Assembly: GCA_963726265.1 (NCBI GenBank)
Contig: CAVSBQ010000002.1
Span: forward strand, 480,001-544,000
Source of the DNA: Candidatus Aenigmatarchaeota archaeon
GTDB taxonomy: Archaea; Aenigmatarchaeota; Aenigmatarchaeia; QMZP01; QMZT01
Length of the DNA: 64,000 nt
Direction of reading: 5' to 3'
In this document: positions 3,026-39,639 of the stretch, piece after piece
How positions within the stretch are numbered: the first letter of the stretch is position 1
Layout of the letters: each line of letters begins with the position of its first letter
Notes under the pieces: model-generated
Told to the model about the DNA's origin: nothing
Databases searched by the model: none
Seen by the model: the letters and a program-made list of their open reading frames with translations, nothing else
Translations under genes and position numbers: made by a program

Positions 3026-3433
3026 GATCCTTTTTGTCAGGACAACTCGCCTATGTTTCATCATCAAGGAACTCAAATGGTGTTCACTTTTTCATAGAAA
3101 GCGAAAGACGCAAGCTCGCGCATGCGTCTGTCTGCCTCCTCAAGTGACTGTCTGAAGAGTCATCATTCCTCTCCAATCCACCCGCCAAAATTTATTGGCG
3201 AGCTTCATATACCGACATGCAGAATTGCATCGCCGCATACCGGTTTCTTTGTAATTTGGTTAACATGAACTAGCTACCAATAGCTTGTTCAGAATAAGAC
3301 AGACATACTCGCGTACGCCACCCTCTGACTGCATGACCTCTTTCCCTGTCACGGATCAAAGGCCAAGTCTCTGAACAGCTTTGGATAGCCATTGTTAGGA
3401 AACGTATTGCATCACTGCAAGTTTCCGTAAGCG

Positions 3434-35174: not shown

Positions 35175-35342
35175 ATGGAAAGTAAAAACTGCATGGAGTG
35201 CGACAGGAGCCACAACTCTGCCGCGCTTGTTGTCTGCAAAAAAACGAAAAAGCCTGTTTGCAGGGACTGCTGCACGAGGGCGAACGGCGGCTTCAGAAAC
35301 TGCGTTGACTGGAACTTCTGCTGGACCAGCTTTTACATCTGA
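35175..35342 (+). CDS. 55-aa Cys-rich microprotein
   Basis: MESKNCMECDRSHNSAALVVCKKTKKPVCRDCCTRANGGFRNCVDWNFCWTSFYI, 8 Cys. Confidence 0.6.
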   Translation: MESKNCMECDRSHNSAALVVCKKTKKPVCRDCCTRANGGFRNCVDWNFCWTSFYI

Positions 35343-36646
35343 GGGCGACGCTTTCTTTTGCCCGGCTTGTGAGTTTTATCGTGCCTTTCCTTCTCTGCCT
35401 TCTCCATGCCCCTGAGCGCGTAATTGAGCGGATTTTTCAGGCCCTTGCATTTCTCGTCCGGCTTGCATGCGCCGAAGGCCTTATACCATCCCTCGCCGCT
35501 GCAGTTCGGCGGCAGGACCTCCTTGTTTCTCGTCCTGTGCCACCTGACATGCGAACGGATGTAGCTTTCCGGCAGCGGCGGCTTGTTCTTGGCGTTCCAC
35601 TCGATGATGAACTTCTCGATGTCGTCCCAGCTCCATTTGGAGGAGCGCAGGAAGTTTAGCAGGATGAAAAGCGAGCGCTTCCTGCCGTCCGAAAGGCCAC
35701 CCAAGATGTTTTTCACGCACGGTGGGAAGCGTTCCAGAGGGACGGGCCTCGTTATCTGCAATCCTCTTCCGACGCGCTTCTCTTCCTTCTTCTTCATCCT
35801 CGCATGCCAGTCCAGCGCCTCGGCTATCAGCAGTTCGGCCTCGTTTTTCTCACCGTTGCCGAGGAAATGCGCATCGACCTTGACGTTTTCCGCCTTGGCC
35901 TGCATCCTTTCGAAGGCGTCGAGCCTTTCCGGCTTGAGCGGCAGGGAAACCAGAAACGTTTTTCCGTTCAGCGAGTAAGGCATGCGGAAAAGGTGCCTGG
36001 GCGATATGAGCACCGGGTCGACGTCCAGAATCTCGTATACGTTAAGCCCGTCGTCGGTGAGGATTTTGCCGAGCGGCTTGTTGACCTGGTGCGAAAGCTC
36101 CTCGGCCGAATATTTTTTGAACAGGTTTTTTTCCAGGCGCTCGAAGACGAAGTCCTTGAGATACATGACTATTTTCCTGGCGAGCTCGGGATAGAGGGAA
36201 ACGGACGGCTTGTAGTCTATGGTCTTGGGTATCGCTTCCCACGGGACGCCTAGATGGAAGCCGGTCCCGCCCGTGAATTTTATGGACACCCCGCGTATGT
36301 CGTGCTTTTTCAGGCCCCAGATGAACGCTTCGCTAGCGATTTTGCCGTGCTCGAAGAGCTTGCAGTCTATGTCCATTATAATATCCCAGCCCGTCCGCAG
36401 TTGCTCGTAGTTGTCCTGGCGCAGGCTCATGGGCTGCGACCAGCGCTCCAGCGACGAATGGAACTCGACTACGCCCGTCTTGACCATCGCGCTTATGTCG
36501 TTAGGATACAGCACGATGTTCGGCCGCTGCGAGAAACTTCCGCTGCGAAAGACGCCGACTACTTCCCTGTCCTTGCCGAAGTTGAGCAGGAAGTTCTGCA
36601 CGTCCTCGCGCGAGTAGTATTCGTATACTCTCCTCAGGTCCATCAT
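35333..36646 (-). CDS. priSL: DNA primase, fused PriS-PriL (DPANN type)
   Basis: AEP motifs WDIIMDID and KFTGGTGFHL; C-terminal FPPC...PPNC..C..C..KNPL Fe-S domain. Confidence 0.9.
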   Translation of the reverse strand: MMDLRRVYEYYSREDVQNFLLNFGKDREVVGVFRSGSFSQRPNIVLYPNDISAMVKTGVVEFHSSLERWSQPMSLRQDNYEQLRTGWDIIMDIDCKLFEHGKIASEAFIWGLKKHDIRGVSIKFTGGTGFHLGVPWEAIPKTIDYKPSVSLYPELARKIVMYLKDFVFERLEKNLFKKYSAEELSHQVNKPLGKILTDDGLNVYEILDVDPVLISPRHLFRMPYSLNGKTFLVSLPLKPERLDAFERMQAKAENVKVDAHFLGNGEKNEAELLIAEALDWHARMKKKEEKRVGRGLQITRPVPLERFPPCVKNILGGLSDGRKRSLFILLNFLRSSKWSWDDIEKFIIEWNAKNKPPLPESYIRSHVRWHRTRNKEVLPPNCSGEGWYKAFGACKPDEKCKGLKNPLNYALRGMEKAEKERHDKTHKPGKRKRRPQM

Positions 36647-36682
36647 AGGTATAGATTAATGGCAGGGATTAAATTATTTAAC

Positions 36683-37537
36683 ATGAAAGTCGTCTTTTCG
36701 CCCGAGTGCCTCGGCTACGACGCGCCAGGCCACCCGGAATCGAGCGAGCGCGTGCGCAGGACGCATTCGCTTCTCGCCAACTTCAGGGAGTTCGAGTTCG
36801 TCAAACCGGAGCCGTGCACGAGGCAGGACCTGCTTCTCATCCACTCTGCCAAAATGATAGACGAGATAAAGCACGACAGGTTTTTCAATCCGGAAACCCC
36901 GGCTCTCCCGGACATTTACGACTACGCGAAGCTCTCCGTTGGCGGCGCGCTGCTCGCCATAGACTTCGCGTTAAAAGGGGAGAAAGCATTCTCGTTGCTT
37001 CGGCCGCCCGGCCATCATGCAGGCAAGGCGAATTTCGAGGGCTTCTGCTACTTCAACAACGTCGCCATCGCCGTCGCGAAGGCGCTGAAAACGAAAAAAG
37101 TTAAGAGGGTCGCGATAATCGACGTCGACGTCCACCACTGCAACGGCACGCAGGCCATATTCCTCGGTAGGAAAGACGTGCTCGTCGCCTCGCTCCACCA
37201 GTTCGGGCCGTTTTTTTATCCGGGCACGGGCAAGCATTCTGAAAAGAACTGCCTGAACTTCCCGCTCGACAGCGGCACAGAGGAACCGTTATATCTCCAG
37301 AAACTCGAGGTCGCGCTCGAAGCAGTCGAGGCTTTCAAACCCGACCTCGTCGCTGTTTCAGCGGGCTTCGATACGCTCGACGGCGATCCGATAGCGAGCC
37401 TCAAGCTACAGGTCAGCACGTATTCCAAAATCTCGAAGCTGATCGTCGAACTGAAGAGACCTAGCTTCGCCGTCCTCGAGGGCGGCTACAGCCAGAAGCT
37501 GCCGGAATGCGTTTACGCCTTCCTGAAAAACTTTTAA
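36683..37537 (+). CDS. Histone deacetylase-family amidohydrolase
   Basis: HPES, RPPGHHA, GFCYFNN, DVDVHHCNGT, SAGFD, LEGGY. Confidence 0.95.
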   Translation: MKVVFSPECLGYDAPGHPESSERVRRTHSLLANFREFEFVKPEPCTRQDLLLIHSAKMIDEIKHDRFFNPETPALPDIYDYAKLSVGGALLAIDFALKGEKAFSLLRPPGHHAGKANFEGFCYFNNVAIAVAKALKTKKVKRVAIIDVDVHHCNGTQAIFLGRKDVLVASLHQFGPFFYPGTGKHSEKNCLNFPLDSGTEEPLYLQKLEVALEAVEAFKPDLVAVSAGFDTLDGDPIASLKLQVSTYSKISKLIVELKRPSFAVLEGGYSQKLPECVYAFLKNF

Positions 37538-37540
37538 ACT
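37524..37540 (+). promoter_or_regulatory. Putative BRE/TATA for the thr leader-thrS transcript (leaderless start)
   Basis: gaaaaacTTTTAAAC, with the TATA starting about 28 nt before the ATG at 37561. Confidence 0.55.
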
Positions 37541-37560
37541 TTCCGGCACAATTAACTTTC

Positions 37561-37626
37561 ATGAACTCCGGCAAGACCAAGAACGCTGACACAACAACCA
37601 CAACGACGACCACTACGACGTGTTAG
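37561..37626 (+). CDS. Threonine-rich leader peptide MNSGKTKNADTTTTTTTTTTC
   Basis: Ten consecutive Thr codons using all four synonyms, 117 nt upstream of thrS. Confidence 0.85.
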   Translation: MNSGKTKNADTTTTTTTTTTC

Positions 37627-37674
37627 TCCATGGTCCCGGCCGGACTGCTTCTTTCGGTTCTCGGCCAGCCTGGA
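37608..37674 (+). promoter_or_regulatory. Attenuator-like alternative hairpins
   Basis: 1 GACCACUA, 2 UAGUCCAUGGUC, 3 GGCCGGACUG, 4 CGGUUCUCGGCC; 2:3 pairing excludes 1:2 and 3:4. Confidence 0.65.
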
Positions 37675-37743
37675 GTTTAGGGCTTAGTTTGGATTGAAGT
37701 TAATTAATAACGGCGACAAAAAATAAAGGTAGGGTGATGGCGG

Positions 37744-39639
37744 ATGAAGATACTGTTGCTGCACTCGGATTTCATAGAATGGGAGCCGAAGGAGAAAGCG
37801 CTTTGAAAAGCGCTGCTGACATTGAGAAAAAAGTCAGCAACGTGAAAGAGGTTCTGGTCGTGTTCTCGGCGGTCGAAAAGACGGACGAAGGCAAGGAGAA
37901 GGTGATAATCGAGAAAACGACGGACGAAATACTCAAGGTCATGAAGGACGTGAAGGCGGAGAACGTCGTGATTTATCCCTACGTCCACCTCACAAGGAAC
38001 CCGTCATCGCCTTCTACTGCGATTGCAATCCTCGAAGGCGTCGAGAAGCATCTCAAAGGCAGCGGCGTGAATGTCTACCGCGCGCCTTTCGGCTATTACA
38101 AGAGGTTCACGATATCCGTGAAAGGCCATCCGCTTTCCGAGCTTTCCAGGGAAATCGTTGCGGAAGGCGAGGCGAAAACCGAAATTTCCAAGGCCGTGGA
38201 AAAGGAGAAGACGCTCGTATCCGAATGGTTCGTGATGGATCTCGAAGGGAAGCTGCACAAGCTGCATATCGAGGATGGCAATGTCCACGGCTTTGATTTT
38301 TCGAAACACAAAAACCTGGAGAAATTCGCCCATTACGAGATGGCGAAGTCGAGAATCGCTGACAAAGAGCCGCCGCATGTGAGGCTTATGCGAAAACTGG
38401 AACTGGTCGATTACGAGAGCGGCAGCGACCCGGGCAACCTGCGCTTCCTTCCCAAGGGAAGGCTGATCAAAGGCCTGCTCGAGGATTACGTGACGAGGAA
38501 AACGGTCGAATACGGTGCCATGGAAGTCGAGACTCCGATAATGTATGACTACGAGCATCCTGTGCTTAAGGACTATCTGAACCGCTTCCCGGCGAGGCAG
38601 TACACCATCGAGACGCCGAACAAACGCGTGTTCCTGCGCTTCGCCGCATGCTTCGGCCAGTTCCTCATGGCGAAGGACGCGAACATTTCCTACCGCAACC
38701 TGCCTCTGCGCATGTATGAACTCACGCGCTATTCGTTCCGCGTGGAGCAGCGGGGCGAGCTCGCAGGGCTTCGCAGGCTTCGCGCGTTCACCATGCCCGA
38801 TTGCCACGCCATGTGCAAAGACATCGAACAGGCGAAGGAAGAGATGCTGACGCGCCTGGACCTGGCGAAGGACGTGTTAACCGGCGTAGGAGTGCCGCTG
38901 GACGAGAACCTGGAAGGCGCGCTCAGGGTCGTGAAGGACTTCTATGACGACAACAAGGATTTCCTGCACAGGCTCGTGAAGAAAATCGGCAAACCCGTCC
39001 TTCTCGAAATGTGGAGCAAGCAGTTCTTCTATTTCGTGCTGAAATACGACCTGAACTTCGTGGACGCGCTGGACAAGGCCGCTGCCCTTACGACTGACCA
39101 GATAGACGTTGAGAACGCGAAGCGCTATGGCATAACTTACATGGACAGCGACAACAAGAAGAAGAACCCGATCATCCTGCATCTTTCGCCTTCGGGCGCG
39201 ATAGAACGCGTCATGTATGCGCTGCTCGAGAAGGCGGACATGGAGGCGAAGGCGGGCAGGAATCCCATGCTCCCGTTATGGCTCTGCCCCACGCAGGCGA
39301 GATTCATCCCGGTCTCGGACAAGTTCCTGAAGCAGACCGAGAAGCTCGCCGATGAAGTCGCCAGCGAAGGCATACGCGCCGACGTAGACGATCGCAGCGA
39401 GAGCGTGCAGAAAAAGGTCCGCGACGCAGAGGTCGAATGGGTTCCTTACTCAGTCGTTATCGGCGAAAGGGAGCTTGAGCGAAGGGAAGCTCGCGGTCAG
39501 GTCAAGGGAAACAGGCAAGGTCGAGACGATGTCTCATGAGGCGTTCGTCAAGATGCTGAAGAAGCAAACCAGCGGAATGCCCTTCAAGCAGCTGCCGCTT
39601 CCGAAACTCCTGACCAAGAGGCCGATATTCATAGGTTAG
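37744..39639 (+). CDS. thrS: Threonine--tRNA ligase, archaeal type; apparent frameshifts near 37802 and 39478
   Basis: True start [13 protein letters not shown], editing domain YPYVHL and [34 protein letters not shown]-terminus [18 protein letters not shown] in another frame. Confidence 0.95.

Follow-up and report, generated by a model that had tools for sequence, protein, structure and literature searches.

A threonine-codon leader ORF that accompanies thrS in an Aenigmatarchaeota order, a candidate ribosome-read sensor of threonyl-tRNA supply

The leader ORF and its promoter

Within the window, by which we mean the whole 64-kb stretch of DNA that was analysed, a short leader ORF rich in threonine codons lies between a deacetylase-family gene and thrS. 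An earlier note on this DNA had placed the host among the DPANN archaea, in agreement with the relatives used here, which are Candidatus Aenigmatarchaeota; the organism is uncultured. The genes and signals at the locus are as follows.

37525 to 37538, plus strand: putative leader promoter, a BRE-like purine-rich GAAAAAC followed by the TATA-like TTTTAAA at 37532-37538 (from the sequence)
37550 to 37555, plus strand: A/T-rich promoter-proximal element AATTAA, at -11 to -6 (alignment A1, genome profile)
37561 to 37626, plus strand: leader ORF, leaderless, 21 codons plus TAG, encoding MNSGKTKNADTTTTTTTTTTC (sequence, homologous ORFs)
37576 to 37578, plus strand: first Thr codon, which is codon 6 and lies outside the ten-codon run (from the sequence)
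37591 to 37620, plus strand: run of ten Thr codons (ACA ACA ACC ACA ACG ACG ACC ACT ACG ACG)
37733 to 37738, plus strand: Shine-Dalgarno-like GGTGAT of thrS (sequence, alignment A1)
37744 to 39639, plus strand: thrS, archaeal type with an N-terminal editing domain (Pfam)

The identification of the next gene as thrS was borne out by the Pfam domains tRNA-Thr_ED, tRNA-synt_2b and HGTP_anticodon, but the reading frame of the assembled gene is broken near 37803 and again near 39474, giving three segments. Because the extra bases at these breaks are missing from contigs of public runs, the breaks are probably assembly indels. Programmed frameshifting in thrS was ruled out by an otherwise identical contig (95 bases covered), together with related contigs, all of which lack the extra bases. 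Both breaks display a CUU codon beside U/G.

The promoter of the leader overlaps the stop codon (37535-37537) of the upstream deacetylase-family gene. Its TATA-like box, TTTTAAA, is centred about 26 nt before the ATG at 37561, in line with the leaderless start that had been proposed, and matches the genome-wide profile before ATGs, which is T-rich at -30 to -26 and A-rich at -25 to -23. Such a box, with at least 8 of 10 A/T at -31 to -22, precedes the ORF in 18 of the 19 leaders compared (the window leader and 18 further ones). The promoter-proximal element is kept as CAATTAA or CAAATAA in alignment A1, the genome profile is enriched in A at -11/-10, and every one of the 19 leaders has 5-7 A/T among the 7 positions from -12 to -6. 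Comparison thus shows a predicted promoter that would put the transcript start at or beside the AUG of the leader ORF.

The reading frame proposed earlier, from ATG at 37561-37563 to TAG at 37624-37626, is present with its ten consecutive threonine codons, in which all four synonyms (ACA, ACC, ACG, ACT) are used. In a six-frame translation of the whole 1.13-Mb genome, this was the sole run of at least six threonines, and the remaining long homo-residue runs outside R and S were just Gly linkers within long ORFs. Threonine makes up 4.5% of residues genome-wide and 127 of 287 codons, or about 45%, in the 19 leaders (summed from peptide lengths). A search of the short frames outside long ORFs in this genome for at least 6 of 8 identical residues returned no convincing case of another cognate-codon leader.

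Comparison of the 19 leaders revealed features of a translated frame. The ATG and an in-frame TAG, which is the stop in every one, occur in all 19, although the ORFs span 13-21 codons in six different lengths and hold 4-11 threonines (2 in one decayed copy). The first threonine is codon 6 in 11 leaders and falls at codon 3-9 in the others. Among the 127 threonine codons, the third base, the informative one as the first two are fixed by definition, is used as ACG 42, ACA 37, ACC 27 and ACT 21. In one contig (L059), a 6-nt insertion behind the ATG leaves the frame intact. The fixed ATG and TAG, the frame kept across lengths and the free third bases bear the signature of translation and suggest that the leader ORF is translated.

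Genes for aminoacyl-tRNA synthetases (aaRS) are often autoregulated via leader RNA, and ACN repeats are complementary to threonine anticodons. Both points would suit a reading in which the run works as untranslated RNA, for example as a site for tRNA-Thr anticodons or for ThrRS, that is, an autoregulatory operator. An operator of E. coli thrS is mentioned in PMC2965389. Such a role is highly improbable for the run described here, as, in 18 of 19 leaders, the ATG occupies precisely the place of a leaderless start from a conserved promoter, the in-frame TAG is universal, third positions vary freely while the frame survives indels, and the decayed copy, which reads MIKTTM, has changed codon-wise from C to T. 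Moreover, an Rfam cmscan of 36500-39000 (2.5 kb), with matches accepted up to E 10, returned just two, both to unrelated families and at chance level, and neither a T-box nor Thr_leader (RF00506). ARAGORN, run to look for tRNA mimicry, detected nothing tRNA-like there. The same program finds only 14 tRNAs in the genome.

Association of the leader with thrS

The covariance model R1, which was built without the window leader, matched the 64-kb window once, at the window leader itself (E 3e-11). Across the 91 genomes of the order, it gave 17 matches in 16 genomes, all 17 upstream of thrS. A pattern scan of metagenomes linked 9 of 40 loci to thrS, the remainder being attributable to chance. By contrast, a Thr-rich frame (at least 5 Thr per 7-residue window) was found in 0 of 80 other thrS upstream regions of the class.

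These counts bear on the alternative that the run has no function, having arisen by chance as a low-complexity repeat or as an artefact of assembly. The assembly does have indel errors nearby, but the leader is conserved, its codons varying, in 16 species-level genomes and other contigs from metagenomes, and a contig of run X2 spans it. Conservation, codon variety and the empty set of 80 controls refute this reading.

The leader also stayed in place where its surroundings changed. In three genomes (G003, G004 and G011) it precedes another type of thrS, 27-29% identical in the catalytic part; in G054 leader and thrS are separated by a LAGLIDADG ORF; and in G023 the intervening genes are asd, encoding aspartate-semialdehyde dehydrogenase, and a 77-codon ORF. 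A 68-codon ORF, which likewise separates leader and thrS in G035, is not like this 77-codon ORF (E 0.35). The gene upstream of the leader varies among genomes, which indicates that the leader goes with thrS. Comparison thereby shows the predicted leader ORF and the RNA behind it travelling with thrS across one Aenigmatarchaeota order. The leader is missing from about half of the family and has decayed in G017, from which we conclude that it is dispensable.

RNA helices and the AU-rich tract

Behind and within the leader ORF, the following RNA elements were delineated.

37562 to 37572, plus strand: segment A, the 5' arm UGAACUCCGGC of the closing helix, comprising the start codon and codons 2-4 (RNAalifold consensus)
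37624 to 37635, plus strand: segment 2, conserved UAGUCCAUGGUC, the stop codon and 9 nt (alignments A1 and A4)
37638 to 37666, plus strand: hairpin B:C, GGCCGG at 37638-37643 with UCGGCC at 37661-37666 (consensus fold)
37668 to 37679, plus strand: segment D, the 3' arm GCCUGGAGUUUA of the closing helix (consensus fold, R1, duplex)
37680 to 37699, plus strand: some 20 nt inserted after segment D and before the AU-rich tract (alignment A1)
37700 to 37710, plus strand: AU-rich tract TTAATTAATAA, at -44 to -34 from the thrS ATG (alignment A1)

The most conserved helix, A:D, joins the mRNA's 5' end to the segment just before the AU-rich tract, with a predicted duplex energy of -16.2 kcal/mol (37562-37572 with 37668-37679) and 92% of cells paired in the alignment. 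Synonymous sites in segment A are nearly invariant, in contrast to those of the threonine run. In G009, double changes preserve the helix (GUC:GAC), and G035 (AUGUACCCC:GGGGUAUAU) and G054 (GCAUCCC:GGGAUGC) build the same architecture from other sequences. One A:D pair is broken in contig L063, and the bulge of segment D in the window leader is shifted in position relative to the relatives. This helix had been overlooked in the earlier pairing scheme, the sequence statements of which hold. The GC-rich hairpin at 37638-37666, numbered 3:4 there, is present and conserved (88.5% of cells paired); at the same place, the leaders of G009 and G035 have hairpins that differ in sequence. For the 2:3 pairing, the paired fraction in 13 relatives is 83%, versus at most 55% in slid controls, and its helix AGUC:GRCU shows double changes at 3 pairs.

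Segment 2, whose length approximates the footprint of a terminating ribosome, can pair with strings of threonine codons or with 37642-37646. The helices A:D, B:C and 2:3 share bases, and relatives show A:B, B:C and C:D alternatives. For 7 of 10 leaders, pairing by the 5' arm ranked in the top 5% against shuffles. Covariation statistics were weak, with 31 to 64 of 500 shuffles matching the observed values in the MAFFT alignment, and the window leader has no advantage in free energy over its shuffles (z +0.83). Swapping 5' arms between leaders was non-discriminating, with C/G runs common to all arms and only G054 and G023 preferring their own partner. A pairing of segment 2 with segment D was also considered and set aside; it appeared in the stalled-state fold of one relative only and depends on that relative's own sequence (by eye), so it is not general.

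The leader lacks a canonical archaeal terminator. No U-tract follows the hairpin, as had been stated; the longest T run between the ORF stop and thrS is 3, and the tract behind the helix is AU-alternating. What had gone unremarked is the likeness of this tract to a second TATA box. Behind 22% of the long ORFs in this genome there is a run of at least 5 T, compared with 10% of random 60-mers. The AU-rich tract is kept in all leaders of the family and also in relatives that lost the leader ORF. The leader transcript may pause or terminate there, the tract may be the TATA box of a promoter proximal to thrS, or it may have both roles.

The second of these roles underlies an explanation that makes the leader a short transcription unit of its own, with thrS expressed mainly from a proximal promoter with its TATA box at TTAATTAATAA (37700-37710), the leader only modulating that promoter by read-through or interference, or adding a starvation-induced transcript to a basal one. 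The tract is TATA-like rather than U-rich, and members of the family have it 35-46 nt upstream of the thrS start codon. It is kept in four loci without the leader ORF (L009, L010, L011 and L052), relatives having lost the ORF and the hairpin through two different deletions with the tract retained, so a promoter of its own may serve thrS. The roughly 20 nt inserted in the window leader, and in no other of the 13 aligned, leave segment D and the tract both intact; a near relative in run X2 is missing 5 bases at 37681. In addition, when the 9-mer richest in A/T is located for 40 Shine-Dalgarno-type starts in this genome, its commonest position is -45 to -41, although the signal is weak. As the main explanation, a proximal promoter is nevertheless quite unlikely, as it leaves unexplained why the threonine ORF and the helices stayed with thrS through a swap of gene type and through insertions; furthermore, the tract of G035 lies only about 12 nt from the first ATG of the next ORF. 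Such a promoter is compatible with a sensor of threonyl-tRNA at this locus and not exclusive of it.

A candidate sensor of threonyl-tRNA supply and its output

We interpret the leader as a ribosome-read leader-peptide sensor of threonyl-tRNA supply that would control thrS, and give this reading, drawn from comparative sequence analysis, a probability of roughly 0.6. Its sensing step is well-supported, while its output step is a guess. According to the proposed mechanism, the first 12 nt of the mRNA (segment A) would pair with segment D, the helix ending at the AU-rich tract about 40 nt before thrS, and the B:C hairpin (GGCCGG) would stack beside it; in some relatives, the same logic could be built from A:B and a small C:D hairpin. 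With plentiful threonyl-tRNA, the ribosome would complete the ORF and depart at the UAG, freeing segment A and allowing the closed fold to form, the presumed low-expression state, in which transcription would most likely stop or pause on reaching the AU-rich tract. With scarce threonyl-tRNA, a ribosome would stall at the first threonine codons, from codon 6 onward, or a follower would queue behind it; the stalled or queued ribosome would cover segment A and leave D unpaired, and transcription would read into thrS.

Folds of the window leader with and without a ribosome followed this pattern. The probability of the A:D helix was 0.83 in the free RNA, 0 with a ribosome at the codon-6 threonine and 0.95 with a ribosome at the stop, and the unpaired probability of segment D rose from 0.18 to 0.61 in the constrained folds. 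A modelled ribosome with codon 6 in its A site covers nt 1-27, segment A included, and one stalled late in the ten-codon run would not itself cover segment A.

The same sensor could instead act on the translation of thrS or on the stability of its mRNA rather than on transcription. A leaderless ORF with a run of consecutive cognate codons, resembling that described in bioRxiv 10.1101/834739, the lack of a U-tract terminator and the strong Shine-Dalgarno-like GGTGAT of thrS are all consistent with such an output. Constrained partition-function folds of the 19 leaders nonetheless count against it, since the Shine-Dalgarno window was unchanged or less open in most of them when a ribosome was placed on the threonine codons, leaving the model of Shine-Dalgarno masking unsupported in silico. 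The consensus fold likewise has no conserved pairing to the Shine-Dalgarno region, and about 90-120 nt separate the ORF stop from the start of thrS, a distance that we judged too great for reinitiation. An output at this level is unlikely.

Leader-peptide transcription attenuators include thrL, trpL, hisL, leuL and the E. coli pheM-pheST system. The window leader resembles E. coli pheM-pheST and the classical attenuators in having a short ORF enriched in codons cognate to the controlled gene and alternative RNA pairings that overlap this ORF, the position of the ribosome being the presumed signal; as in pheST, the controlled gene is an aaRS gene. It differs from the classical attenuators in its archaeal host, with a TATA/BRE promoter and archaeal RNA polymerase, in its leaderless ORF, in a main helix that takes the mRNA's 5' terminus, start codon included, as one arm, and in the absence of a hairpin-plus-U-tract terminator. 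There is no sequence similarity either, Rfam having given no Thr_leader match. We know of no work establishing hairpin-dependent termination for archaeal RNA polymerase. Comparison strongly supports the core of the earlier note's attenuator idea, a threonine-codon leader ORF with a leaderless start that is tied to thrS and accompanied by alternative pairings. Ribosome stalling, switching of the fold and up-regulation of thrS, or control of adk-ndk, are predictions of that note.

Parallels are also found among leaderless bacterial leaders. For mycobacteria, Canestrari et al. (bioRxiv 10.1101/834739) proposed that ribosomes stalled on poly-Cys leaderless short ORFs block an RNA structure, the stalled ribosome opening a duplex that conceals the next gene's ribosome-binding site. 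These ORFs share with the window leader a leaderless start, consecutive cognate codons and the first place in an operon, but the system is bacterial and controls cysteine metabolism genes rather than an aaRS, and its output, the opening of a ribosome-binding site, is unsupported by the in silico folds of the window-leader family. In Deinococcus deserti, leaderless leader peptides precede tRNA synthetase and amino-acid genes, and attenuation of aaRS genes was predicted (PMC4007540, which also summarises the trp attenuation case). There, too, the transcript starts at the start codon of the leader peptide, and the peptide holds cognate residues, for example 2 Cys before cysS; the host, however, is bacterial, the cognate residues are few compared with the run of 6-10 found here, and those cases are likewise predictions.

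Our full-text literature search found no report of an archaeal leader-peptide attenuator. A conserved, thrS-linked leader of threonine codons would show that archaea control genes through coupled transcription and translation, and the leader, at about 180 nt, would offer a compact and mutable object for testing what the structure of nascent RNA and the position of the ribosome do to an archaeal polymerase or its termination factors. Such a leader would likewise reveal how DPANN cells, with their reduced genomes and dependence on hosts, monitor threonine, which they probably import. Whether the locus exemplifies a leaderless form of archaeal leader-peptide control, with the initial 12 nt of the mRNA serving as an arm of the regulatory helix, occupancy of the 5' end, set by threonyl-tRNA supply, gating the polymerase and the sensor being modular, is in our estimation an even bet. 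Such a sensor would be modular given that the leader stayed through the swap of thrS type and carries both Thr and Lys codons where asd joined the locus, as in the G023 leader MMSQGMTTKKTKTFY, behind which asd is the first gene.

The threonine-codon leader ORF and its promoter

Ahead of thrS lies a real, conserved and thrS-linked leaderless leader ORF of threonine codons, placed within conserved RNA helices. This leader, comprising the short ORF (uORF) and the foldable RNA after it, is most likely read by ribosomes to sense the supply of Thr-tRNA. Re-reading of the window returned the TATA-like box, the uORF, its ten-threonine run and thrS as the next gene, all as the earlier note had described them, along with AATTAA and a Shine-Dalgarno-like motif:

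37532-37538, TATA-like TTTTAAA
37550-37555, AATTAA
ATG 37561 to TAG 37624-37626, uORF encoding MNSGKTKNADTTTTTTTTTTC
37591-37620, ten consecutive Thr codons of the uORF
37744, ATG start of thrS, preceded by Shine-Dalgarno-like GGTGAT

A further threonine occupies codon 6 of the uORF. Pfam recognized an editing domain, a class II core and an anticodon-binding domain in thrS, and identified the neighbouring genes as a deacetylase-family member on the upstream side and adk and ndk on the downstream side; the leader itself gave no Rfam match and no ARAGORN tRNA. Averaged over 812 candidate starts of the window's genome, the gene-start profile was T-rich at -30 to -26 and A-rich at -25 to -23, with A prominent at -11/-10 and a pyrimidine at -1. 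This corresponds to a TATA box whose centre lies about 26 nt before the ATG, as in leaderless mRNAs. Of the 812 starts, 223 had A/T at 8 or more of the 9 positions from -30 to -22. The leaderless-type arrangement is also found ahead of the uORF, and among 19 leaders at least 8 of 10 positions from -31 to -22 were A/T in 18, while -12 to -6 was A/T-rich in all. In the six-frame translation of the whole genome (1.13 Mb, 4 contigs), the uORF contained the only run of at least six threonines. Coordinate arithmetic identified a valine run on the opposite strand as its mirror image, and the two long Gly/Pro runs of the genome are glycine linkers within long ORFs. A looser genome scan for single-residue-enriched short frames outside long ORFs did not yield a second convincing case.

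The indirect evidence that the leader ORF is translated, as predicted, is good. All 19 leaders have an ATG start and an in-frame TAG stop despite six ORF lengths (13 to 21 codons), and one contig carries an in-frame 6-nt insertion directly after the ATG. Their 127 Thr codons use all four third bases (ACG 42, ACA 37, ACC 27, ACT 21); the first four codons are near-invariant, synonymous sites included, and the third bases of the Thr codons vary. The TAG of every leader (37624-37626 in the window) sits in a conserved GUUAGUC motif; either the RNA pairing GACUA:UAGUC or something particular to UAG as a stop may explain its invariance.

Linkage to thrS and changes of gene context

The Thr-rich uORF that the earlier note expected upstream of thrS in relatives was indeed present in part of them. 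When the regions upstream of thrS were read in 40 relatives, nine family loci, counting that of the window, proved to have a homologous ORF in the corresponding position; it encodes MNSG, one residue and 6-11 Thr, and one copy is decayed (MNSGFMIKTTMSR). A metagenome scan with the downstream conserved motif recovered 40 loci, nine of them thrS-linked, and three new leader variants (MNSGKTITTTTTTTSR, MSLNSGLTTTTTTFR and MNPGLITTTTTTFC). The leaders of 13 relatives, with the window left out, served to build a covariance model, whose only match in the 64-kb window was the leader (57 bits, E 3e-11). Against 91 genomes of the order, it gave 17 matches in 16 genomes, with positives in 11 of 22 genomes of one family, to which the window's own genome adds one more, in the single genome of a second (1 of 1) and in 3 of 47 of a third, and none in three further families of the order (0/5, 0/1 and 0/14). 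All 17 matches lie ahead of thrS and share its strand; the gene on the far side of the leader varies between genomes, which ties the leader to thrS. For comparison, the 450 nt preceding thrS were examined as a control in 80 genomes without a model match (60 outside the order, 20 inside), drawn from the 150 matches listed of 332 in all. Among these listed matches, none of the 80 regions had at least five Thr in any 7 consecutive residues, whichever of the three forward frames was read, and their orientation was checked by a start Met at the end in 76.

Two different deletion junctions, together with decay in one genome, indicate that the leader was lost repeatedly. The uORF and hairpin are deleted in L009 and L011 (one genus) and in L010 and L052 (another genus), all four loci retaining the sequence from CCAGCC onward, and the Thr codons of genome G017 (L006) have decayed to MIKTTM.

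Other relatives have retained the leader ahead of altered genes. Genomes G003, G004 and G011 encode a different thrS, only 27-29% identical in its catalytic part, yet the leader and first codons are nearly the same, which suggests that most of thrS was swapped in place behind an unchanged control region. These genomes belong to the same genus, and their thrS is shorter, at ~575 aa (G003:C8:22906-24661, L079; G004:C7:37077-38832, L078; G011, L085). In G054 (L084, C4, 1635-2795), a 386-codon LAGLIDADG-type ORF between leader and thrS, overlapping the thrS start, resembles a homing-endonuclease gene that entered the locus just after the leader. In G023 (L086, C300, 1160-2600), the order is leader, aspartate-semialdehyde dehydrogenase (NCBIfam 326 bits, cut-off 232), a 77-codon ORF and thrS. 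The leader peptide of G023 mixes Thr and Lys codons (MMSQGMTTKKTKTFY; TTKKTKT), a single example reminiscent of multivalent attenuation. A 68-codon Cys/His-containing ORF (3228-3431, - strand) lies between leader and thrS in L021 (G035:C8), overlapping the thrS start; it shows no similarity to the 77-codon ORF that occupies the corresponding position in G023.

RNA folds, proposed mechanism and precedents

The consensus fold comprises a closing helix A:D of 11 pairs, joining transcript nt 2-12 (A, 37562-37572) to D (37668-37679), a hairpin B:C (GGCCGG:CCGGCC, 37638-37666), and weak pairing of the Thr codons with the conserved UAGUC..UGGUC after the stop. In the 13-sequence alignment, 92% of A:D and 88.5% of B:C cells were paired, against at most 48% for slid partners; variation in the helices is scarce, and the observed values were reached by 31-64 of 500 shuffles, which makes for weak statistics. 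Divergent copies support the closing helix: G009 retains A:D via GUC:GAC and forms another hairpin where the others have B:C, the arms in G035, a member of a different family, are AUGUACCCC:GGGGUAUAU, and G054 has GCAUCCC:GGGAUGC immediately before its AU-rich tract. One pair is broken in the L063 contig. The 5'-arm duplex ranked among the best 5% of 500 arm shuffles in 7 of 10 leaders, and the overall fold of the window leader was no better than shuffles (z +0.83). The alternative helix proposed in the earlier note, between the stop region and the hairpin 5' arm (AGUC with GRCU), held up, with 83% paired, double changes at three pairs and slid controls at or below 55%; it overlaps the last G's of B. 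In G009, G035 and G023, the pairings A:B, B:C and C:D can be drawn as alternatives. The C:D hairpin of these leaders is small and precedes the AU-rich tract, and the arrangement resembles the classical four-segment layout.

Constrained folding of the window leader predicted that its pairing depends on ribosome position. The A:D probability was 0.83 in the free RNA, rose to 0.95 when a ribosome occupied the stop codon, and fell to 0 with the ribosomal A site on the codon-6 Thr, where the unpaired probability of D rose from 0.18 to 0.61. With a ribosome on the last Thr codon, A stays uncovered, and therefore a queued second ribosome would be needed. On the basis of these folds, we propose that scarce Thr-tRNA would prolong ribosome occupancy of the mRNA 5' end, which would block the closed A:D + B:C fold, the putative low-expression state.

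D is followed by UUUA, and directly by AUUAAU in relatives; the longest T run is 3, consistent with the absence of a U-tract recorded earlier. Runs of at least five T follow 22% of long ORFs in the genome versus 10% of random 60-mers. The AU-rich tract (37700-37710), ~40 nt before thrS, is TATA-box-like and is retained in the four loci that lost the uORF and hairpin; at 40 Shine-Dalgarno-type starts, the 9-mer richest in A/T was located at -45 to -41 more often than elsewhere, a weak signal. A proximal thrS promoter at this tract is therefore possible, and the leader may add to basal thrS expression. Translational output found no support, as modelled stalled-state folds of the 19 leaders predicted no rise in Shine-Dalgarno accessibility.

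The nearest precedents are bacterial: leaderless leader peptides ahead of aaRS genes in Deinococcus deserti (PMC4007540), and the leaderless poly-Cys short ORFs of mycobacteria (bioRxiv 10.1101/834739). Bacteria also have the leader-peptide attenuators pheM-pheST and thrL. The putative Thr leader would work like a bacterial attenuator, differing in that the terminator of that family was not found. No report of an archaeal leader-peptide attenuator was found in full-text searches of the literature outside subscription journals, and the passages covered of PMC2965389 and PMC13681488 contain nothing on archaeal attenuation.

Further features of the locus and genome

ARAGORN detected only 14 tRNA genes in the whole 1.13-Mb genome, one being tRNA-Thr(CGU); many tRNAs probably contain introns, are split or did not assemble. 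As assembled, thrS (37744-39639) falls into three frame segments, interrupted near 37803 and 39474: one frame holds residues 1-20 and the final 54, a different frame the central 560. A contig from the public DNA run X1, otherwise identical over the 95 bases that it spans here, has one base fewer at 39474, while relatives in runs X2 and X3 have two fewer at 37794-37799, and X2 one fewer at 39477. Since these contigs do not have the extra bases, the breaks are probably assembly indels rather than signs of a pseudogene or programmed frameshifts. A 437-codon ORF (35333-36646, - strand) has weak Pfam matches to both the small and the large DNA primase subunit and is possibly a fused primase. The deacetylase-family gene has a long open frame (36254-37537) whose 5' part overlaps this ORF; the true start of the gene is probably further downstream because its Pfam domain begins only at residue 160.
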